Source: Spirochaetia bacterium (GTDB lineage Bacteria > Spirochaetota > Spirochaetia > SZUA-6 > Bin103). From it: DNA of 64,000 bases. The notes under the pieces are model-generated. The model had not been told where the DNA came from, did no database searches, and saw only the letters and a program-made list of their open reading frames with translations. Below, piece after piece: positions 226-11,777 of this stretch. Position numbers and translations under genes: made by a program. The DNA lies in assembly GCA_965203055.1 (NCBI GenBank), contig OZ241863.1:1568001-1632000 (forward strand), written 5' to 3'. Position 1 is the first letter of the stretch. Each line of letters opens with the position of its first letter.

Positions 226-1413
226 ATGACCGACGTGGACCACTCCGACGCCGACCGTAACCGGCAAGCGCCGCCGTCCAGCTCCGCGGGAGCCCCGGAG
301 CAGGCCGCGGCGCGAGCGGCCCGGCAACCGGCCGGCGCGGCGCTGGAGGTGCGGCGGGTCAGCGTCCAACTCGGCGGCGGCGCCGTGCTGGCGGACGTGT
401 CGCTGGCGGCCCGGGCCGGTGAGATCGTGGCCCTGCTCGGCCCCAGCGGGTGCGGCAAGACCACCCTGCTGCGGGTGATCGCCGGGCTGCAGCCGCATGC
501 CGGCGAGGTGCGCTGGCAGGGTCGGTCGGTGGCGGCCGTGCCCGCCCACCGGCGCGGCTTCGGACTGGTGTTTCAGGACCAAGCGTTGTTCCCGCATCTG
601 GACGTGGCGCGCAACGTCGCCTTCGGCCTGCGCATGCGGGCCTGGGGCGCCGCCGAGCGCGCGCGGCGGGTAGGGGAGCTGCTGGAACTGGTGGGGCTGA
701 GCGGCTTCAGCCGGCGGCCGGTCGACGCTCTCTCCGGCGGCGAGGCGCAACGCGTGGCGCTGGCGCGCGCGCTGGCGCCGCGCCCGCGGCTGCTGATGCT
801 GGATGAACCGCTGGCCGGTCTCGACCGGCCATTGCGGGAACAGCTTCTGGCCGACCTGCCGCGCATCCTGCGCTCGCTCCGGCAGACCGCGCTGTTCGTG
901 ACCCACGATCTGGAAGAGGCGCTCGCCGTCGCCGACCGGGTAGCGGTGATGCGCGCCGGCCGGATCGCGCAGGTGGCCGCGCCGCGCGCGCTTTACGAGC
1001 GTCCCGCCAGCGTGTTCGTCGCCCGCTTCCTCGGCCGCGCCAACATCCTGCACGGCACCGTGCGCGGCACCGTGCGCGGCGGCCCGGCCGAGCGCTCACT
1101 CGAAACCGACCTCGGCCTCCTGCCGTACGACCGTTCCACCCCGCCCGGCGCGCGCGGCGCAGTGTTGATCCGGCCCGAACAGATCAACCTGGTCGAACGC
1201 GAGCCGCCTGCCGGCGCCCCCGCCGGAGCCGTGTCCTTGCGCGGCACGCTGCAGGCCACCTCATTCCGCGGCACTGCCGCGCTCGCCACCGTACTGGTCC
1301 GCGCCACCACCCTGCAGGTCCTGGTCACCGGCCGGCGCACGCTCCCCGCCGCCGGCGCTGCCGTAACCATCAGCTTCCACCCTCACGCCGCCGTAGTCCC
1401 CCTCACCGCTTAA
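226..1413 (+). CDS. ABC transporter ATP-binding subunit (Fe3+/thiamine/polyamine class, C-terminal TOBE-like region)
   Basis: Walker A GPSGCGKT, Q-loop VFQDQALFPHL, signature LSGGE, Walker B LMLDEP, H-loop VTHD. Confidence 0.95.
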   Translation: MTDVDHSDADRNRQAPPSSSAGAPEQAAARAARQPAGAALEVRRVSVQLGGGAVLADVSLAARAGEIVALLGPSGCGKTTLLRVIAGLQPHAGEVRWQGRSVAAVPAHRRGFGLVFQDQALFPHLDVARNVAFGLRMRAWGAAERARRVGELLELVGLSGFSRRPVDALSGGEAQRVALARALAPRPRLLMLDEPLAGLDRPLREQLLADLPRILRSLRQTALFVTHDLEEALAVADRVAVMRAGRIAQVAAPRALYERPASVFVARFLGRANILHGTVRGTVRGGPAERSLETDLGLLPYDRSTPPGARGAVLIRPEQINLVEREPPAGAPAGAVSLRGTLQATSFRGTAALATVLVRATTLQVLVTGRRTLPAAGAAVTISFHPHAAVVPLTA

Positions 1414-1477
1414 CCTACAGCGGGCCGCCCGAGTCGTCCGCGGCGATCGTCGCGGTCGCCCAGTGCGGGCGTGCTCC

Positions 1478-1506
1478 TTGCTCGCCTTGCTAGAGGGCGA
1501 TATGAT
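1478..1506 (+). promoter_or_regulatory. Putative sigma70 promoter for the helicase (likely leaderless)
   Basis: TTGCTC (1478-1483), 17 nt spacer, TATGAT (1501-1506); ATG at 1515 with no SD. Confidence 0.55.
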
Positions 1507-1514
1507 GTCCTGTA

Positions 1515-4500
1515 ATGAGCGGAAATGATCTGGTCGTCGGAGCTCTGGTCCAATGGACCGAAGGACAGGGATACGGCGAGGTCACCGGTATCGACGCAAG
1601 ACGGATCAGCGTCCGTTGGGATCATGAAGGTAACCCCCCGCAATTCGCTGCCACGAATCCACCGCTATCGAGGGTCGAATTTTCAGCCGGTCACGTTGTC
1701 CAACTGAGATCGACCAACGAAACCGCCGCCGTCCTCAGTATTGTGACTACTGAGCCTCCGGTTTGGAGTTTGCTCGTTACCGGGCAGCCACCGCGGACTC
1801 TGAACGTGCCGGAAGCAGGCTTGCGCCCGCAATCGATCACAGATCCTGTCGAGCGATTCAAGAGCGGGCACATCGGTTCACTTCAAAAATACCGGCTTCA
1901 GGAAGTAACGAGATGGTATTGGGAGCGGCATCATTACGACGACCTCGTTTCGCTAGGACAGGTTGGTGTAGACCTGAAACCGCATCAGGTTTCGGTGGTT
2001 CACAAGGTAGTCTCCGAGTATCCTCACCGTTTTCTGCTGTGCGACGAAGTCGGTCTGGGAAAGACAATCGAGGCAGGGATGGCACTCAAAGAGCTCCGGT
2101 CCCGCGGAGTAGCTAGACGAGTCCTCGCCATTGTGCCACCTAACCTGATTTTTCAATGGCAATTCGAGATGAAGACCAAGTTCAACGAAATATTCGCTAT
2201 ATTGAATACCGATGTTGTTCGTTTCCTGCAAAATGATAGCGGTTTCAATGACAACCCGTTCACGTACCGAGACAGCGTTTTGTGTTCTGCGGCCTGGGTG
2301 GTTAACGAACCCTGGGCGAGCCAGTGCGCTGCCGCGGATTGGGATCTTGTCATTATCGACGAAGCGCACCATGCGCGAAGCCGCCGTAGCGGAAACAGGA
2401 TAGAGCGTACGCGTCTATACCATTTGGTAAACAAACTTGCGACGATGGAACACTTGACAAGAGGATTGTTGTTCCTCACTGCGACGCCGATGCAGCTCGA
2501 CACTCACGAACTCTACTCCCTCGTAGAACTTCTTGACCCCGCGCTGTTCCCTTCGGAACAACACTTCGACCGCCATCGTACGACAGTTCCTGGTCTCTCT
2601 TATCTCGTCGAACGCCTGTCTCGTCATGGATTTCCATTGCCCGATGAGACAAGGGAGGTAACCGCCCGACAGGTTGGCGAATGGCTTGACATCGACTGCA
2701 ATGAAGCGCATCGACGACTCAACGATTCAAAAGAGCTCAGGAAGCTGACTGAAGATCTGTCGGAACGCCACCTCCTTAGCAAGGTGTTGATTCGCAACCG
2801 AAAAGCCGTAGTGGGCGATTTCGTAACGCGTATCGCCGTGCGCTGGGAGGTCGATCTGACGCCAAAAGAACTCGCTGCACTGAGTGCCGTAAAAGAGTAT
2901 GTGCAGTATGGTTACCAGCTTGCCGAACAACGCAATAACAATGCGGTTGGATTCGCAATGGTTGTATTCCAAAAGTTGATGGCATCCAGCATCGCCGCAA
3001 TTCAGGTTGCATTGAGCAAACGTCGAGAAAAAATAGGTGCCGATTTCGCAGAAGGGCAGTCATATGTTGATCTTCAAGAAAGGCTGGAAGAAGACGACGA
3101 CGCAGCAGATGTCGTCGGAGCCTATGGCCTTGTAGATGAGCAGGCGTTGCTGGATCAGGCTCTCGCAGCACTTGGTGCGGTAGAACGTGACTCCAAGGCT
3201 TGCGTACTTGTTGAGCAAATCAATACGCTGTTCACGCGCCATGAAGCGGGGTCGCATCGGCGTGCTAGCGACCAAGACGACGGCAAGATAATTATCTTCA
3301 CGGAGTTCCGAGAGACTCAGCGCTATCTTCAGCGCCTTCTGGTTGCTCAAGGGTGGGGAGTCAACGTATTTCACGGGCAGCTTGACGCTGTTAGCAAAGA
3401 CCGCGCCGTGGCTCGATTCAGGGACAATGTCGGGCCGCAGGTTCTGATTAGCACCGAAGCGGGAGGAGAGGGGAGAAATTTTCAGTTCTGCCATATGCTT
3501 GTGAATTATGACCTGCCCTGGAACCCGATGCGAATTGAGCAGAGAATCGGACGGGTGGACCGAATTGGTCAGGAACATGTTGTTAAGATTTTCAACTTCG
3601 CGGTAAGGGATACCATCGATATTCGTATTCTCGACGTGTTGGAGCATCGCATTCATGTCTTCCAGGAAACGGTGGGAGGGCTCGATCCTATCCTTGGCGC
3701 GGCCGAGCGAGACCTCAGGAAGATCATGCGTCAGGCCGAGGCACAGAGGGACGCCGCCTTTACCGAGTTTGGTCAACGCGTAGCGGAGCGGATCAGTAGA
3801 GCCCGAGAAGCACGGGAACAACTTGGCAATTTTATCATGGACACCAAGTCATTCCGCAGAGAGATTGTTGAGCGTATTACCGGGCAGCCGTCACCGATCG
3901 ATAACGACCGTATTGAGCGGTTCATCGGAAAACTGCTTGCTAGCGTAGGGACTTACATCAAACGTATGGGCAGCGGCTACCGTCTTACCTTCCACGGCGA
4001 ATTCTATGATACCCACCGGAAGCTGATCCTGGCAGGTGGGAAAAAAATGAACGCAGTGTTTCGGCGTGACCGTCGGCCTGATGAAGAGAGTGTTGAATTC
4101 ATGGCCTTTGGGCATCCGATCGTTGATACGATTGTTCAGCGTATCCTGGAAGAAGGCTATGAGGGAGTGACCGGTACGCGTCGCATCCGTGCGAATGATG
4201 AACTTTCACCTGCCAAAGGATGGCTTTTCAGTTTCCAGTTTACTGTTCCCGGTGTGCAGTCCACTGAACACATAGTACCGGTATTCGTGAACGACGACGG
4301 CCGTGTGGACGACGATGCGGGCCAAGTCATTCTGGATCGTGCATGCGAGTTCGACGATCACGAACAGGAGATACCGTTGCCGAAAATTCCCGATAATCTC
4401 GATAGACTCGAGCCATTGGCGAAAGACGTTGTCAACACCATTCAGCAAAGACTGCAGCGGGATGCCGAGATTAAAGCGGCCGGTCGAATAGATCATGAGG

Positions 4501-4976
4501 TTGCTCGACTCAACACTTGGTTCGACTATCGGGAGCGGGTAGCCAGAGACCGCTTGACCGCTACTCGAGCTACGTTAGATCGTCTTCAGTCGAGCGACGA
4601 CGACTCAGTGCGCCGAATTATTCCTGTTTGGGAGGCAAATCTTCGGCGCGACGAGGCGCTTCCCGATAGGCTCGCGCAGGAGCGCAGGCGCCGGATCGCT
4701 GATATAGAGAGACACCGCCACCCGCAGGTTGCTTGGGCTCTGAAATCGCTAGGCCGCATCGAGATAGTTGCTCCGGCTGAAGGCGAGCGAGGACGTATCA
4801 GTGCGCGGAGGGGCGACGATGGCAGGATTGCGCGGTTGGAACGTGCAGGGACAATAGTACGCCGTTCTTCCGGGAGTCCGCTTGATGTGTTGGGGCAGCC
4901 GGTACGGACGGACGCGAATATCCTGAGCGCGCTGCTGGAGGAGCGCTCCGAAGAATACGAAGAAGGTCATCGGTGA
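1515..4976 (+). CDS. SNF2-family helicase (RapA/HepA-like) with a C-terminal antitoxin-like tail
   Basis: LKPHQ, DEVGLGKT, DEAHH, LTATP, STEAGGEGRNFQ, QRIGRVDRIGQ; Tudor/SH3-like N-terminus; lower GC than the flanks. Confidence 0.92.
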   Translation: MSGNDLVVGALVQWTEGQGYGEVTGIDARRISVRWDHEGNPPQFAATNPPLSRVEFSAGHVVQLRSTNETAAVLSIVTTEPPVWSLLVTGQPPRTLNVPEAGLRPQSITDPVERFKSGHIGSLQKYRLQEVTRWYWERHHYDDLVSLGQVGVDLKPHQVSVVHKVVSEYPHRFLLCDEVGLGKTIEAGMALKELRSRGVARRVLAIVPPNLIFQWQFEMKTKFNEIFAILNTDVVRFLQNDSGFNDNPFTYRDSVLCSAAWVVNEPWASQCAAADWDLVIIDEAHHARSRRSGNRIERTRLYHLVNKLATMEHLTRGLLFLTATPMQLDTHELYSLVELLDPALFPSEQHFDRHRTTVPGLSYLVERLSRHGFPLPDETREVTARQVGEWLDIDCNEAHRRLNDSKELRKLTEDLSERHLLSKVLIRNRKAVVGDFVTRIAVRWEVDLTPKELAALSAVKEYVQYGYQLAEQRNNNAVGFAMVVFQKLMASSIAAIQVALSKRREKIGADFAEGQSYVDLQERLEEDDDAADVVGAYGLVDEQALLDQALAALGAVERDSKACVLVEQINTLFTRHEAGSHRRASDQDDGKIIIFTEFRETQRYLQRLLVAQGWGVNVFHGQLDAVSKDRAVARFRDNVGPQVLISTEAGGEGRNFQFCHMLVNYDLPWNPMRIEQRIGRVDRIGQEHVVKIFNFAVRDTIDIRILDVLEHRIHVFQETVGGLDPILGAAERDLRKIMRQAEAQRDAAFTEFGQRVAERISRAREAREQLGNFIMDTKSFRREIVERITGQPSPIDNDRIERFIGKLLASVGTYIKRMGSGYRLTFHGEFYDTHRKLILAGGKKMNAVFRRDRRPDEESVEFMAFGHPIVDTIVQRILEEGYEGVTGTRRIRANDELSPAKGWLFSFQFTVPGVQSTEHIVPVFVNDDGRVDDDAGQVILDRACEFDDHEQEIPLPKIPDNLDRLEPLAKDVVNTIQQRLQRDAEIKAAGRIDHEVARLNTWFDYRERVARDRLTATRATLDRLQSSDDDSVRRIIPVWEANLRRDEALPDRLAQERRRRIADIERHRHPQVAWALKSLGRIEIVAPAEGERGRISARRGDDGRIARLERAGTIVRRSSGSPLDVLGQPVRTDANILSALLEERSEEYEEGHR

Positions 4977-5412
4977 ATTTCTGGACACTTCTGGGATCGT
5001 GGCGCTTGTGGTCGATGAGCCACACCAGCCGTTTGCTCGGAGCACTCTCGAAAACGATGACAGGATGGCGGTGTGGTGGGGAGCCTCTGTCGAATACGTT
5101 TCAGCGGTGTCCCGGCGGGTGCGTGAAGGCACCCTGACTGCAGACCAAATCGACCAGCTTGTTCATTACCTCGAGGAACTATCGAGAGAATGGTACGAGA
5201 TTCAGCCCGATTCGAAGATCAGAAAGACAGCTCAGACACTGGTTCGTCGTTATCCGTTGAGAGCCGCGGACGGTCTGCAATTAGCGGCGGCACTCGCCAT
5301 TGCTGAAAGCAATCCGGGGAGTATTGGATTCGTATCCTTCGATAGACGACTGAAAAATGCCGCTGTCCAAGAAGGGTTCGCCGTTCTTGACGGCGAACCG
5401 CCGTCCGAGTGA
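4973..5412 (+). pseudogene. vapC: VapC-family PIN toxin with an apparent 1-nt frameshift near codon 4-5 (pseudogene or sequencing error)
   Basis: GTG at 4973 overlaps the helicase TGA and follows AGAAGG. It reads MNFW, while the body (DTSGIVALVVDEP, VEYVSA, LRAADGLQLAAAL, SFDRRL) is in the -1 frame. The first in-frame start (4999) omits the first catalytic Asp. Confidence 0.75.
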
Positions 5413-5506
5413 CGGACCGATCAAACTCTATGGTAGTATTCTGCCTTCCGTCCGGTCAAGCAGCCAGTTCGACGAAGATGGCGCCCGTCTCGCCGCTGGA
5501 ATCTGC

Positions 5507-6286
5507 CTATTGGTTATTTCGCACGACGCCGGGCTGGTGCTGGTTGGCGCCCATCAGTTGGCGTACCAGTTCCGACGGGTTGTCCAGGTCCGCCAGTTGG
5601 GCGCGCATATCTTCCTGGGTGACGTAGATCGGTCGGGTATACATCCCCAGCAGGGCGCTGCGCGCCGCGTTCGACGTGTTGGGACGGGCGGTATGCCAAG
5701 TGGCCCCATGCATCACCATCACGCTGCCGCGAACGGCCGTCAGTATCTCTCCGTCGGGATGCCAGTCGGAGGCTATCTCCGGCGGTGGACGATGCCCCTT
5801 GCGATGGCTGCAGGGGATGATCCCGGTACCGCCGTTCTCCGCTGAAAAGTCATTCAGCAGCCACATGGTCTGCCCGCTGATGCGGTCGGTCGGCCAGGGT
5901 TGATTGAGCCGCTGATACGGCCAGTCAGGATGCCAGCCGTATCGGGAATAGCCGGGATAGGTGGTATTGGCCGTCCAGGTGGAGCAGATCATGTCTTCGT
6001 CGAGATACCGTCTCCAGATGGCCACGATCAGGGGATGGGACATCAATTCGACGAAGATCGGGTGCTTGACGGCTATCCGCGCAACCCGCTGAGTCTTCTT
6101 CTCGCGGCTGATTTCGCTCTCCTCGTCGGCCAGAAAACGCTCCAGGATGGCGCGCACCCGATCCGCTTTCTCTACCGATATCACCGACGGGATAACGCAG
6201 TAACCGCGTTCATCGAGTTCGGCAATGATTTCCGATACGTCAGACGGACGAACCGACCCCTCATCTGCGATCAAGCTCTGCTCCAT
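5507..6286 (-). CDS. Phytanoyl-CoA dioxygenase (PhyH)-family Fe(II)/2OG oxygenase
   Basis: LDERGYCVI, HxD motif WHPD, ENGGT..IPCSH, WHTARPN distal His and downstream Arg. Confidence 0.9.
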   Translation of the reverse strand: MEQSLIADEGSVRPSDVSEIIAELDERGYCVIPSVISVEKADRVRAILERFLADEESEISREKKTQRVARIAVKHPIFVELMSHPLIVAIWRRYLDEDMICSTWTANTTYPGYSRYGWHPDWPYQRLNQPWPTDRISGQTMWLLNDFSAENGGTGIIPCSHRKGHRPPPEIASDWHPDGEILTAVRGSVMVMHGATWHTARPNTSNAARSALLGMYTRPIYVTQEDMRAQLADLDNPSELVRQLMGANQHQPGVVRNNQ

Positions 6287-7407
6287 TCTCGTTCTCCGAC
6301 GCCGGTGGTATCGGCTACCGGTCTGAATTCTCCACGTTTGCCCAGCGAGCGCTGGATTTCGCGGTCGTAGAGGGACGTGAAGGCTTCGGCAATTGGGCTG
6401 TGTCGGAGCTCGAAGGGCTGTGACGCGGACTCGCAGCTCACTTCGCCGGTCGAGTCCCGGTATAGTGCGTGGAAGCGTACTTCGTCGCCCTCCTCTATGA
6501 GCAGCTCCAACTCCTTCAAGACCGCGTAGTCATGGGTAGCTATCAGGATCTGGACACCCGAGCGTTGCAACTGCAGCAGAATATCGACGACGACGGTCAG
6601 GAGGCCGGGATTGAGATTCGCCTCCGGCTCGTCCCAGAACAGGACCGAGCCGCTCGGCAGTGAGCCGTTGCGAACCAGCAGCCAAAGAAGACCGAGCTTG
6701 CGCAGACCCTCAGCGAGCAACATGAACTCAATCTTGCTGTTGCCGTTCTCGACGAATAATTCCTCTCCTTCATCCGTCACCCTGCCTCCTATCGCGGCCT
6801 CAAGACGCTTCTCGATCCGCCTGACGGCATTCGTCCTCTTACGCAACGGCGGTAGATAGGCGCGGTCTATGATGTCGGAGTAGATCTCCTCTACGTGGAT
6901 CTCATGCTGTTTGTAAAGTGAACGGAATCCTGGTGCATTAGAGAGTATTTCCTTGGCCGGAATGAACGTGCTTTTGACAACCTCTTCGGGCCAATTAAGT
7001 TTCGCAAAGGAGCCCATTCGTCTGGCCTCGTCGGATACGGGAAAACGTAATCTGAGGCTGCCGCGCCACACTTCAACGATTGCTTGACGATCTTCACTTG
7101 GATGTCTTACCAAACGTTGAATACTGTTTCGAGACGGCAAGAAAACTCGAACGAGCTTGTGATAGAAGGGTCCTTCCGGACCCATCACGTAATCGATATT
7201 GGTTGTCTTGAATTCACATGCCGCGTAGGCAACCTTGAGGAGATGCGTCTTACCGGTTCCGTTGGCGCCAATGAATACGTTTATGCCTGGGCCGAGCTTC
7301 AGATCGAGTTGCTCGAACGCCGTGAACCGTTCAAGGACGATGCGCGTCAACGGAGGAGCGTGCTTTGAGCTTGGCAAGCGAGGGGCATTCTTGACTTCAT
7401 TTTGCAT
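6271..7407 (-). CDS. AAA_21/AbiEii-like ABC-type ATPase
   Basis: GINVFIGANGTGKT, degenerate signature LAEGLRK, FWDEPEANLNP, ATHD. Confidence 0.85.
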   Translation of the reverse strand: MQNEVKNAPRLPSSKHAPPLTRIVLERFTAFEQLDLKLGPGINVFIGANGTGKTHLLKVAYAACEFKTTNIDYVMGPEGPFYHKLVRVFLPSRNSIQRLVRHPSEDRQAIVEVWRGSLRLRFPVSDEARRMGSFAKLNWPEEVVKSTFIPAKEILSNAPGFRSLYKQHEIHVEEIYSDIIDRAYLPPLRKRTNAVRRIEKRLEAAIGGRVTDEGEELFVENGNSKIEFMLLAEGLRKLGLLWLLVRNGSLPSGSVLFWDEPEANLNPGLLTVVVDILLQLQRSGVQILIATHDYAVLKELELLIEEGDEVRFHALYRDSTGEVSCESASQPFELRHSPIAEAFTSLYDREIQRSLGKRGEFRPVADTTGVGEREWSRA

Positions 7408-7561
7408 ATTTTCTCTCCGGGATCAGCGTAAGATCGGAAGCGCATCGCCTCGGCGAAGATCTCCAGGGCGGCGCCGTGATCGCCTGCTCCCAGGGCGACA
7501 ACGCCACCGCCACCCTGGGCGGAGAAGCGCATGTGGTTGGCGGTTTCACCGGGTGTGTCCG

Positions 7562-9019: not shown

Positions 9020-9511
9020 TCAGCGGCCGGTGGCGGAGCCAAGGCCCATGGCCCGCCGCCAGGCCGCCAACTGGCCCAGATGGTTGGCCTCGTGCGAGGT
9101 CATCAACGGCACGACGTAGTCGCCGACGGTAGGGAACCGCTGCCGCGCCTTCGGGTTGGGGTGCGGCTGCGCGAGCTGCTCCTCGTCAGCCGCGGCCACC
9201 GCCGCCGCCACCCGCTCGTGCTGCGCGGTGAGCTGATCCACAAGCTGCTGCCTGGAGGGATAGTCGGCGGCGTTGCCGCTGGGGGTGCCGCCGGGCCGGC
9301 TGGCCTCGCGCCACGCCTCGGGAAAGGTGGACTCCTGACCTAGCACCTGGGCCAGGTTGTCGGCCACCGCCGCCAGATGGCCCAACGTCCAGGCCGGGTG
9401 ATTGATCACTCCGCCGGGCTGTTGAACCATCTGCTCGTCGCTGAGGTCCTGCACCTGCAGCCCCGCGACCTTGAGGTTCATCGCGTAGGTGCGCAGCACG
9501 TATTGCAACAT
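9020..9511 (-). CDS. DinB-family protein
   Basis: NHPAWTLGHL and HEANHLGQL motifs; GGAG precedes the ATG at 9511. Confidence 0.85.
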   Translation of the reverse strand: MLQYVLRTYAMNLKVAGLQVQDLSDEQMVQQPGGVINHPAWTLGHLAAVADNLAQVLGQESTFPEAWREASRPGGTPSGNAADYPSRQQLVDQLTAQHERVAAAVAAADEEQLAQPHPNPKARQRFPTVGDYVVPLMTSHEANHLGQLAAWRRAMGLGSATGR

Positions 9512-9580
9512 GAGGTCTCCTTGTATCGAGTATCGAGAGTAGAGAACGTTGCGGACAATATACCGCGATTCCGCGCGAGC

Positions 9581-9616: not shown

Positions 9617-10747
9617 ATGGCACTACTTCGGGCCGCGGTCATTGGACTGGGGCGGATCGGCAGCACCTTCGACGACGAGATCACCCGCGGCGGCACGTTC
9701 TTCCTTCCCTACTGTCACGCGCCGGCGTACGCGGAGTCGCCGCTGGTGGAACTGGTCGCGGGCGCGGATCTCAATGCGCAGCAACGCGCGTGGTTCGCGG
9801 AGCGCTGGGGACTGGGCGAGGAGCACGTCTACGCCGATTACCGGGAGATGCTGCAACGCGAGCAGCCGGACTTGGTCAGCGTGTGCACCAGCGCGCGGCC
9901 GCGCGCCGCCATCATCGAGGCGGTGGCGCGGGCCGGCGTGCGCGGCATCTGGGCGGAAAAGCCGATCGCGGTGAGCCTGGCGGAGGCGGATTCCCTGCTG
10001 CAGGTGTGCCGGGAACACGGCACCAAGGTAGCGGTCAACTGCCACCGGCGCTGGAACGCACTGTTCAGGGAGCTCAAGCGCATGCTCGACGCCGGCGAGT
10101 TCGGCCGGCTGCAACAGATCACCGTGCACGGCACCTTCGGCTTGTCCAGCAACGGCAGCCACATGCTCGACACGATGAATTTCCTGGCCGGGAGCCACGT
10201 CGAGTGGGTGTTCGGCGAAATGGAGTCGGATGCCGCCGCCGCCGGCGACGACGATCTGCAGGGCAACGGCTACCTGGCGTACGCCAACGGAGTGCGCGGG
10301 TTCGTACGCAGCATGCCCAGCGGCGCCGCGTTCACCTCATTCGACGTCATTGGCGAGCAGGCGCGCGCCTCAACCGGCGACGACGGGATGAGCTGGCGGC
10401 TGGTACGGCGCGTACCGGGCGACGTCGAGCGGCCCAGCATGCGGCCGCTCTCCAACCGCTTCAGGGGCGCGTTGCCGGTGGAGTATCCGTTTCCGCTGCC
10501 CAACCGCCTCCAGGCCAGCGGGCTGGCCATCGTCGAAGATCTGGCGGCGTGCATCGCCGGCGGCGGTACCCCGCAGTGCTCCGCCGAAGATGCCCGGGCC
10601 GCGCTGGAGATCGCGCTGGCGCTGCGCGAATCGCACCGCCGCGCCGGCCAGCGGGTGAGCCTGCCGCTCGCCGACCGCCGGTTGCGGCTGGTCTCCGGCG
10701 ACACCTTCCAGGACCACACCCCGGCCCGCCTGCGCCCCCGCAAGTAG
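9617..10747 (+). CDS. Gfo/Idh/MocA-family oxidoreductase
   Basis: AAVIGLGRIG Rossmann motif, PDLVSVCT, WAEKP, GSHMLD. Confidence 0.92.
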   Translation: MALLRAAVIGLGRIGSTFDDEITRGGTFFLPYCHAPAYAESPLVELVAGADLNAQQRAWFAERWGLGEEHVYADYREMLQREQPDLVSVCTSARPRAAIIEAVARAGVRGIWAEKPIAVSLAEADSLLQVCREHGTKVAVNCHRRWNALFRELKRMLDAGEFGRLQQITVHGTFGLSSNGSHMLDTMNFLAGSHVEWVFGEMESDAAAAGDDDLQGNGYLAYANGVRGFVRSMPSGAAFTSFDVIGEQARASTGDDGMSWRLVRRVPGDVERPSMRPLSNRFRGALPVEYPFPLPNRLQASGLAIVEDLAACIAGGGTPQCSAEDARAALEIALALRESHRRAGQRVSLPLADRRLRLVSGDTFQDHTPARLRPRK

Positions 10748-10775
10748 GCAAGCAGGCAAGCAGGCCGCGGGGGCG

Positions 10776-11777
10776 TTACGCCGGGGGTGGCAGCGATTGC
10801 AACCCGGCCGCGGCCAGGATGGTTTCCTGCACCGCCAGCTCGTGGGCAAAGCTGCGGTCCGGCGGCTGCTCGCCGCGAATCGTGGCCAGGAACGCGCGCA
10901 GGCTCTCGACGTAGCGCGGACGGTTGGTCACCGCCACCTCCTGCCAACCCGCGCCGTAGCCGTCGCGGGCGCGGTCGAGGCACAAGCGCAGCCGGGGCGG
11001 CTCCAGCGGCTCCAGAATGGCGCTGCCGCGGGTGCCGTACACCTCCAGCCGGCGCGCTGCCAGCGGGTCCACCTCGGCGGCCACCGACTCGACTACCGCC
11101 AGCGCCGCAGGATATTCCAGCACCGCCGCGGTGTTGTCGCGGTACCACCGATACTCGGCGCTGTGCTGCCGGGCAAACGGCGTCACCCGGTGCGGGCGCC
11201 CCAGCAACGCCACCACGATGTCGATCACGTGACCGGCCAGAATGAACATGATGCCGCCGGCGCGTTCGCCGCGCGAGTCCCAGCGCTGCCAGTTGTCGGG
11301 ACTCGACGGACGGGTCGAAATACGCGCCCGCACCGAAAGAATCGCGCCCAGCTTGCCGGCGGCCGCCCAATCGATGATGAACTGGAAGCCCGCGTTGTAG
11401 CGAAACATGTAGCCGAGCTGCAGGTGGAGCTTGCGCTCCGCGGCCAGATCGAGCAGCGCGGCGAACGCCTCCAGGTCGTCGCCGGCGGGCTTGTCCAGCC
11501 ACACGTGCTTGCCATGCTCCAGGCAGGCGCGGGCGAACGCCAGGTTCTCCGCCACCCGTCCCTCCACCGCAACCGCCTCGATCGTGGGGTCCTCGAGCAT
11601 CTCTTCGGGGGTGGCGTACCAGTGGGCGCCGGCGTAGGGGGGAGCCGCGCCGAGCGTGGTCCGCAACTGCTCTGACGGTTCGCATACGCCGGCCAACTCC
11701 ACCGCGTCACTCGCGCGCATCACGCGCGCCTTGCCGGCGGCATGATCGTGGCCGATGCCGTACTGTGCCATTCGCAT
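10776..11777 (-). CDS. Gfo/Idh/MocA-family oxidoreductase
   Basis: MRMAQYGIGHDHA, HVWLDKP, GYMFRY, GHVID. The longer ORF-track version runs antisense through the next gene. Confidence 0.9.
   Translation of the reverse strand: MRMAQYGIGHDHAAGKARVMRASDAVELAGVCEPSEQLRTTLGAAPPYAGAHWYATPEEMLEDPTIEAVAVEGRVAENLAFARACLEHGKHVWLDKPAGDDLEAFAALLDLAAERKLHLQLGYMFRYNAGFQFIIDWAAAGKLGAILSVRARISTRPSSPDNWQRWDSRGERAGGIMFILAGHVIDIVVALLGRPHRVTPFARQHSAEYRWYRDNTAAVLEYPAALAVVESVAAEVDPLAARRLEVYGTRGSAILEPLEPPRLRLCLDRARDGYGAGWQEVAVTNRPRYVESLRAFLATIRGEQPPDRSFAHELAVQETILAAAGLQSLPPPA

Follow-up and report, generated by a model that had tools for sequence, protein, structure and literature searches.

An SNF2 helicase that ends in the toxin-facing half of a Phd-type antitoxin next to a vapC gene, and a parallel ParE-type arrangement in the same helicase family

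The usual picture of a type II antitoxin is that of a small, labile protein that binds DNA. In a stretch of 64,000 nucleotides (nt) from a Spirochaetia bacterium (assembly GCA_965203055.1, contig OZ241863.1, positions 1,568,001 to 1,632,000; hereafter the window), the gene of a large SNF2 helicase was found to run on, past the natural end of the enzyme, into a segment related to the C-terminal half of a Phd/YefM-type VapB antitoxin, and its stop codon overlaps the start of a vapC toxin gene (Table 1). On balance it is probable, with considerable room for doubt, that the two genes represent a type II toxin-antitoxin module whose antitoxin has been cut down to the toxin-binding tail and is made only as the end of the helicase. 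The neutralising segment alone would thus survive as the C-terminal appendage of a motor enzyme of about 1100 amino acids (aa), and arrangements of this kind appear to have arisen at least twice, with the unrelated toxins VapC and ParE.

The helicase body ends with ...WALKSLGRIEIVAP at residue 1087 (base 4775) and is closed by the C-terminus that is normal for the family, ...LKSLGRIEIVAP; from there the reading frame continues for 66 residues, in line with the original prediction, made from the sequence alone, of a run-on of about 65 aa. Within this extension lies the stretch DDGRIARLERAG...ALLEERSEE, in which the same prediction had recognised the C-terminal pattern of Phd/YefM-type VapB antitoxins and had suggested a search with the tail residues alone. 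The assignment was right. When the last 70 residues were compared with proteins of 38-123 aa, 17 of 20 candidates passed the cut of E <= 0.01, with a best E-value of 8e-19, far beyond chance, and identities of 61-85%; most of them are proteins of 108 aa, and a Phd/YefM domain (PF02604) is precomputed for six of the 17. When the tail is aligned with the Phd proteins of 108 aa, it pairs with their C-terminal ~54 columns only; 12 columns are invariant in tail and Phd sequences (including R..SPL..L..P....A....A.LEER), and nothing in the window corresponds to the Phd N-terminal domain (MIRxTxSEVK...ARIVPVG). The linker between helicase body and tail could be a remnant of the variable linker in Phd; as read from the alignment, the spacing is 23 aa from RIEIV to RIARLERAG in the window and 22 aa from RIVPV to KLARLERAG in Phd. 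Judged by these alignments, the tail represents that half of a Phd-type VapB which faces the toxin, minus the domain that defines the Pfam family, and with the DNA-binding domain of Phd the usual autoregulation should be gone as well. Pfam and PADLOC hold no family for the tail alone (residues 1063-1153), for which NCBIfam gave one chance-level hit, and no Phd, RHH, HTH or AbrB match was obtained for the antitoxin element in Pfam or NCBIfam. Furthermore, the absence of a separate antitoxin gene, as originally claimed, was borne out: no open reading frame (ORF) for an antitoxin intervenes between the helicase and vapC genes, and a search of the window's whole genome returned a single match, with no second copy of the tail.

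The overlap between the helicase stop and the GTG of a PIN-domain gene, likewise part of the original prediction, is indeed present at 4973-4976. An overlap of four bases is found in canonical phd-vapC operons too, namely in L039 (phd 5690-6016, vapC from 6013) and in L040 (phd 5789-6115, vapC from 6112). These two loci come from a metagenome scan with the junction alignment, in which 596 candidate stretches were listed; among the matches listed, two loci were confirmed, both of them canonical operons, and no further fusion was seen. L040 encodes a Phd of 108 aa and a VapC of 141 aa, and the vapC gene of L039 is frameshifted (6013-6558, interrupted after ~25 codons by a frame-shifting GC-rich stretch). 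The homologues of the window VapC in canonical operons are PIN proteins of the MNFWDTS type, with 57-61% identity. The canonical phd(yefM-type vapB)-vapC operons resemble the window arrangement in the toxin, in the toxin-facing C-terminus of the antitoxin and in the 4-base overlap; they differ in that a Phd/YefM DNA-binding and dimerisation domain of ~45-55 aa stands where the window has an SNF2 helicase of 1087 aa. In other words, the canonical antitoxin is a small separate protein with an operator-binding domain, and the antitoxin element of the window is neither small and separate nor provided with such a domain. From the GTGA overlap, vapC would be translationally coupled to, and co-transcribed with, the helicase ORF. 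A promoter and terminator scan of positions 1300-5700 gave no plus-strand promoter-like site, with counts about equal to those of shuffled sequences, and is uninformative for this organism.

The PIN frame, taken over 4927-5409, passes the gathering score of the Pfam PIN family (PF01850; E 6.6e-7, 30.4 versus 23.6 bits). In the window strain, the gene begins with GTG AAT TTC TGG (MNFW) and then slips out of frame at codon 5, where one G of the TGG-GAC run is missing at 4983-4984; the other 145 residues stand in the PIN frame. All 11 aligned VapC homologues start with [MV][NT]FWD[TA]S. In public contigs over 4300-5600 the extra G is found behind 4982 in those of X1 (depth 23), X2 and X9, from three other studies, and the lesion of vapC is therefore real and strain-specific. 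X7 lacks the extra G; it matches the window without a difference (depth 52.9) and may be its source. One X1 contig, of 9498 nt, runs from the end of the helicase through the tail and an unbroken vapC, and an intact protein of 153 aa (P0024) is 97% identical to the window VapC. In P0024 numbering, the acidic residues D5, E41, D100 and D124 are invariant in 32 VapC sequences; the PIN frame of the window keeps its acidic columns, D20, E42, D115 and D139 in its own numbering, which are invariant in a 12-row alignment. As a second strain difference, the vapC frame of the window ends at the TGA of 5410-5412, and P0024 runs eight residues further (RRTDQTL...).

A co-fold of tail and VapC, also suggested in the original prediction, was computed with the P0024 alignment (32 rows) for VapC and an 18-row alignment for helicase residues 1088-1153. 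The pair passed the controls, with a score of 0.79 versus 0.00 for the best of three controls; the mark used is reached by 116 of 157 solved complexes and by two of 215 mismatched pairs. Between runs, at least 93% of the contacts are shared, and the partner has a predicted local distance difference test (pLDDT) value of at least 73. On the side of VapC, the predicted contacts (residues 6-7, 41-42, 97, 99-100 and 123-124) flank the invariant D5, E41, D100 and D124, and on the side of the helicase the predicted interface comprises residues 1101-1145. The tail is thus predicted to sit over the PIN active site of VapC, and the co-fold supports binding between the two; VapBC complexes have already been solved, so that the pass may in part reflect likeness to them.

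The fusion is not confined to this genome; confinement to it, with helicase and vapBC separate in relatives, is what the original prediction would have taken as the sign of a mere deletion scar. Searched against proteins of 124-2000 aa, the tail matched two helicases, P0019 and P0023. P0019 (1153 aa) is 99% identical to the window protein in the tail and 97% overall, and its cluster has five members, from sister strains; both this cluster and that of the VapC P0024 have members on contigs of 9498 and 22965 nt. P0023 (1060 aa) is a helicase with 62% identity to that of the window over 1078 aligned residues, in which the tail follows at the identical junction; 17 of its 18 final residues are those of the window protein. 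A candidate neighbour of P0023, the VapC homologue P0025, was ruled out in a check by hand by one incompatible codon in the overlapping frame; by its N-terminal extension, again reasoned by hand, the gene of P0025 lies behind some tail of the ...EERREGHR type. Moreover, the genome G315, of the same genus as the window, holds a relic of the fusion at the same chromosomal site, after an orthologous ABC-transporter gene (80% identity). The tail ORF of this relic is 74% identical to the end of P0023, which makes the relic one of the P0023 type and not of the window type; G317 holds a relic as well. Of 40 genomes related to that of the window, only one other, G308, showed the helicase C-terminus, without a tail, and the gene is accordingly regarded as accessory.

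These observations bear on the view that the fusion is a dead relic or an artefact, either a meaningless private scar or an assembly chimera. The frameshift in the window vapC and the broken helicase ORFs of several related long-read assemblies would fit such a view; nevertheless, the same junction occurs in independent assemblies from three other studies, in the five-member P0019 cluster and in P0023, and the tail has stayed in frame and conserved across a divergence to 62% identity. As an account of the fusion as such the relic reading is contradicted, and overall we hold it to be highly improbable; it holds only for the inactive toxin of the window strain.

The same helicase family has acquired a second, different tail. 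In a scan of one genome per species, 37 helicase loci were collected, with 31 bacterial relatives at 42-66% identity, mostly from Dehalococcoidia and other Chloroflexota, Latescibacterota and some Pseudomonadota. None of the 37 loci matched the window tail or PIN, so that, among the helicase homologues, sharing of the Phd-type tail, which the original prediction had asked about, holds for P0019 and P0023 and does not extend to these species-level loci. The helicase C-terminus could be read in 29 loci: 19 end 0-7 aa past GRIEVV, three add 14-16 residues, one adds 95, and six (L003, L005, L007, L010, L016 and L029) end in a tail of 41-49 aa with the pattern ...DPDxGLELR..F..EL.ASLEA....G......EEVA.RLGLSW. 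The 95-aa extension, that of L014, is without assignment (9229-9516) and is followed by a transposase (9890-10905) that we take to be IS630-like. In all six loci with the second tail, an ORF of 86-90 aa abuts or overlaps the helicase stop, and Pfam ParE_toxin was matched in the three that were tested. ParE homologues occur in six of the 37 loci, precisely those with this tail.

The ParE-type tail has no Pfam family at useful E-values (five of five tails). With a profile of it, 1.84 billion representatives yielded 138 proteins at E <= 1e-3; most of these have about 74 aa and match with their C-terminal part. The small hits that were scanned matched no antitoxin family in Pfam, and the RelB-like models of NCBIfam reach the 74-aa family only at E 0.04-0.06, too weak to be used. 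This family (A6: P0123, P0126, P0135, P0142 and others; loci L047-L059) follows the pattern M..K.V.DLT..E...LIR..V.Q.....DPD.GLELR......L..S......G......EVA..LGL.W. Its genes stand alone at 12 loci in 301 sampled genomes of that phylum, and at 10 of the 12 a ParE gene lies directly downstream, which identifies the family as the cognate ParE antitoxin. The ParE-type tail of the helicases is the C-terminal two-thirds of this 74-aa antitoxin, and the family appears to be an unnamed family of ParE antitoxins, with no Pfam model in the members scanned. A search of the five genomes that carry the helicase-tail gene intact gave no other strong hit of the tail profile, and just one weak hit, in G001 (E 0.0084).

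Proteins other than complete helicases end in the ParE-type tail as well. Three of them (P0120, P0124 and P0150) have 150-200 aa and an N-terminus without known family, and P0163 (458 aa, known as protein only) is a type III Mod methylase (PF12564 and PF01555). In P0117 and P0147, also known as proteins only, about 105 Tudor-like residues from the helicase N-terminus are joined in frame directly to the tail; the two look like survivors of in-frame deletions that were kept for the tail. The P0117 cluster counts nine members, all of 159 aa, on ~26 contigs of up to 3.3 Mb. The protein itself was not found in 401 sampled genomes (class-level search), from which another locus, L067, was obtained: it encodes (2-2120) an ApeA_NTD1 protein of 426 aa, a protein of 190 aa with the ParE-type tail and a ParE of 90 aa, with overlapping stops and starts, and it may be another case of a defence gene coupled to a ParE toxin-antitoxin pair.

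For 31 helicase bodies, trimmed of their tails, a quick maximum-likelihood tree was built. In it, the Phd-tail helicases (window, P0019 and P0023) form one clade (SH-aLRT support 100) and the ParE-tail helicases a separate one (SH-aLRT 99), inside which L009, with neither tail nor ParE, is nested. This topology points to two acquisitions of antitoxin tails and one joint loss of tail and toxin. Selection was estimated on the five intact ParE-tail loci. Synonymous sites are saturated (proportion of synonymous differences, pS, 0.65-0.75); the mean nonsynonymous proportion (pN) falls from 0.283 in the tail through 0.226 in ParE to 0.169 in the helicase body. The estimates of dN/dS, for those comparisons that allowed one, lie at 0.11-0.42 for the tail and at 0.07-0.11 for the helicase body. 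Purifying selection acts on all three, the ParE-type tail, ParE and the helicase body.

As regards the origin of the fusion, a deletion from the 3' end of the helicase gene into phd would probably have produced it, and the product would then have been inherited and kept. At the junctions, the natural end of the helicase meets short, similar motifs of the antitoxins (RIEIV versus RIVPV in the Phd-type, RIEVV versus IREVV in the ParE-type case), which suggests a deletion through microhomology. The original prediction had offered the choice between a helicase-gated toxin and an accidental deletion that fused the helicase to a vapBC operon; the deletion is plausible, its description as a private scar is not, the product having been inherited and selected. 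A related possibility is that of a purely selfish hitch-hiker: a downstream phd-vapC pair, and separately an antitoxin-parE pair, would have lost its promoter and the N-terminus of its antitoxin, after which addiction alone would keep the tail and an open frame, with no benefit to helicase or host. Much of the data can be explained in this way. In fact, the meeting of the junctions at GRIEVV with ARIVPV of Phd and IREVV of the 74-aa family would fit a microhomology-mediated deletion, the in-frame survivors P0117 and P0147 consist of an N-terminus and the tail only, tail and toxin were lost jointly in L009, and relics are frequent. Not easily explained are two independent in-frame events in one family, of which ~30 members were sampled: behind the other members, toxin and antitoxin genes were nowhere seen as an unfused pair (no PIN or Phd-type tail in any of the 37 loci, and ParE only in the tail loci), and a toxin-antitoxin Pfam family was matched by none of 11 further downstream ORFs of helicase relatives. 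The helicase body is, moreover, under stronger purifying selection than the upkeep of an open frame would call for. On balance, selfish hitch-hiking seems unlikely.

In the module that we favour, the antitoxin would be the last ~54 residues of a RapA/BrxHII-like SNF2 helicase, so that the helicase polypeptide itself would act as antitoxin and the control of the toxin would be tied to the production and integrity of that polypeptide. VapC would be produced together with the helicase and held by the tail across its PIN active site, as long as full-length helicase is synthesised and stays intact. The RNase would be freed once the helicase gene is lost, truncated or switched off, or once the protein is destroyed, in the manner of a passive dead-man switch. 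Such a switch could stabilise the helicase gene and its island and might provide a fallback in cases where host expression is blocked by an invader; in the window strain it would recently have been disarmed by the 1-nt deletion in codon 5 of vapC. That the tail neutralises the toxin, what follows from the coupling and whether anything is gained by it are here matters of inference.

Several observations weigh against this proposal. The toxin is dead in the window strain, which consequently has no working toxin-antitoxin pair, and decay of the module is common. Of the module, the G315 relic (L062, 1392-1900) retains ~25 codons from the very end of the helicase gene, with a stop, a tail ORF of 69 aa that is still intact, and 19 codons from the start of vapC. 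Tail-only ORFs (P0002 and P0003) occur among the small tail matches, and the contigs of X2 and X9 carry one of the P0002 type with vapC skipped and a loose end that reads as the N-terminus of P0002. In the ParE-type locus L029, a TAG stands at codon 7 of ParE and the helicase is broken. The P0117 cluster suggests, in addition, that the helicase body is dispensable for the role of the tail, and no ParE gene was seen beside it. Finally, the neighbours of the helicase relatives are mostly metabolic genes with no conserved partner, so a defence role of the helicase family has likeness to profiles as its sole basis. The state of the helicase genes should be read with care: the helicase is split over frames in seven of the 31 bacterial loci (L002, L004, L019, L021, L027, L028 and L029; longest ORF 334-954 aa), and in many of these loci, which come from long-read assemblies, assembly indels and true pseudogenes are indistinguishable. 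Broken helicase ORFs were counted in none of five loci with tail and intact toxin versus six of 25 tail-less loci, small numbers that assembly errors confound.

Besides the transposase of L014, genes of a mobile or defence-like kind were recorded in passing near some helicase relatives: a pentapeptide-TIR protein (L012, 4442-5848), a NERD-UvrD protein (L018, 3546-5240), a DNA methylase gene that ends 4 nt before the helicase start (L022, 4243-5946) and, in L028 (8868-13658), a DUF4158 protein, presumably transposase-associated, together with an SF1 helicase of 1262 aa.

A more active role of the motor may also be envisaged, in which a trigger (foreign DNA, a phage protein or a stalled RNA polymerase) would lead to ATP-driven release of the tail from VapC and to abortive infection. 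The helicase scores best with profiles of defence helicases. In Pfam, its body matches SNF2-rel_dom (1.7e-17) and Helicase_C (1.5e-20), with weak matches to RapA_C and Tudor_1_RapA; in PADLOC, the top profile is BrxHI|BrxHII (PDLC02500, 2.7e-107), then DrmD (2.3e-73) and HmaA (4.7e-73), and the BrxHII profile PDLC02504 is matched at 4.1e-70. The protein stays below the curated NCBIfam cut-offs for the RapA equivalog (NF003426; 369.8 versus 576 bits) and for DISARM DrmD (NF038317; 324.4 versus 610 bits). Also favourable to active gating are the location in a low-GC island beside a HEC-02A-like ATPase, the recruitment of two different toxin families by the same helicase C-terminus, the ParE-type tails on the Mod methylase P0163 and on the 190-aa protein behind the ApeA_NTD1 gene, and the strong purifying selection on the helicase body in the tail-bearing clade. 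These points are offset by the P0117 cluster, which retains the tail with just ~105 N-terminal helicase residues, so that the tail may be able to work without the motor, by the lack of tail and of defence neighbours in most members of the helicase family, and by the failure to find any relative on viral contigs (44 pattern matches, none confirmed). On this evidence active gating seems decidedly unlikely, and the passive switch is the form of the proposal that we retain.

Among known systems, the closest in domain order are BrxHII and RapA. BrxHII, the helicase of type 3 BREX, is composed of a Tudor domain, Snf2 and two alpha/beta domains, in parallel to RapA (PMC12839542), and the order Tudor-Snf2-RapA_C is shared by the window helicase. 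No antitoxin-like tail is mentioned for either protein in the passages of that source on BrxHII and RapA. BrxHII differs also in its BREX context: the island of the window holds four genes only, and the BREX operon genes (PglX-type methylase, PglZ and BrxC) are absent from it.

Toxic nucleases held by a large enzyme are known from other contexts. The anticodon nuclease PrrC is kept latent by the restriction enzyme EcoprrI, and in PARIS (AriA-AriB) a toxic nuclease is silenced by association with a large defence ATPase. The arrangement proposed for the window would be similar to both, with the difference that their partners are dedicated and non-covalent, whereas in the window a segment of a type II antitoxin has been grafted onto the enzyme. 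CapRel is an example of a fused toxin-antitoxin. Some fused toxin-antitoxin modules consisting of a single gene act in phage defence, according to a paper on them (PMC11980606). In these, as in the window, the antitoxin element is covalently joined to another functional protein; there it is joined to its own toxin, while in the window it is joined to an unrelated large ATPase and the toxin is encoded by a separate, coupled gene. The word 'helicase' occurs 0 times in the main text of that paper. Lastly, Hma and other Snf2 defence helicases (PMC11232893) combine an Snf2 helicase with a toxic nuclease in a defence context, in keeping with the HmaA profile match of the window helicase; in the Hma type the nuclease domain lies inside the helicase polypeptide, and in the window a separate toxin would be held through the antitoxin tail. 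No account of an SNF2 helicase with an antitoxin tail came up in a full-text search of the literature; architectures of this kind could be listed in supplementary tables, which lie outside such a search.

If the tail does neutralise the toxin, the window would offer a natural case of toxin control hard-wired to the synthesis or state of a helicase, with a bearing on how toxin-antitoxin systems are triggered during infection and on how costly accessory genes are stabilised. A practical consequence is a rule for searches, since profiles of antitoxin C-termini at the ends of large proteins can reveal further couplings; in the present case, the ~74-aa family, without Pfam match in the members scanned, was identified as a ParE-linked antitoxin. 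More tentatively, and as a speculation rather than an expectation, the grafting of such tails onto large nucleic-acid enzymes (SNF2 helicase, Mod methylase, ApeA-type partner) might be one of the general ways in which bacterial immunity is wired: the enzyme would be the antitoxin, and the coupled RNase or ParE would fire when an invader inhibits or degrades the enzyme or stops its synthesis, so that the toxin would guard the defence enzyme, or the helicase would actively release the toxin.

Table 1. Positions in the window of the helicase-tail gene, the coupled vapC gene and the surrounding island
Feature	Position	Strand	Remarks
Helicase-tail ORF	1515-4976	+	1153 aa
SNF2 helicase body, residues 1-1087	1515..4775	+	Tudor-like N-terminal region, SNF2 ATPase core, Helicase_C, RapA_C-like C-terminal region
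Linker, residues 1088-1099	4776..4811	+	AEGERGRISARR; Gly/Arg/Glu-rich; loose alignment with the variable linker of 108-aa Phd proteins
Antitoxin-derived tail, residues 1100-1153	4812..4973	+	GDDGRIARLERAG...ALLEERSEEYEEGHR; C-terminal half of Phd/YefM-type VapB
GTGA overlap	4973..4976	+	helicase stop TGA 4974-4976, vapC start GTG 4973-4975
vapC (PIN-domain toxin), pseudogene in the window strain	4973..5412	+	MNFW from GTG; rest in the frame open over 4927-5412
1-nt deletion site	4983..4984	+	GG in the window, GGG in sister strains
Low-GC island	1420..7450 (approx.)		52-60% GC versus ~73% in the flanks (composition profile)

The island is given here as context, with no claim that it belongs to the toxin-antitoxin module. 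Besides the helicase-tail gene and vapC on the plus strand, it contains the genes of a PhyH-like dioxygenase and of an AAA_21 ATPase, both on the minus strand, and it is flanked on one side by an ABC-transporter ATPase gene and on the other by a gene that we take, from a motif, to be phosphomutase-like. The AAA_21 ATPase (6271-7407, minus strand) matches PADLOC HEC-02A at 1.9e-111. The ATPase-dioxygenase pair (5507-7407, minus strand) is unlike the HEC-02 models because the dioxygenase has no PADLOC hit; in Pfam this PhyH-like 2OG-Fe(II) dioxygenase (5507-6286, minus strand) matches PhyH at 1.2e-21, and its gene overlaps that of the ATPase by 16 nt.

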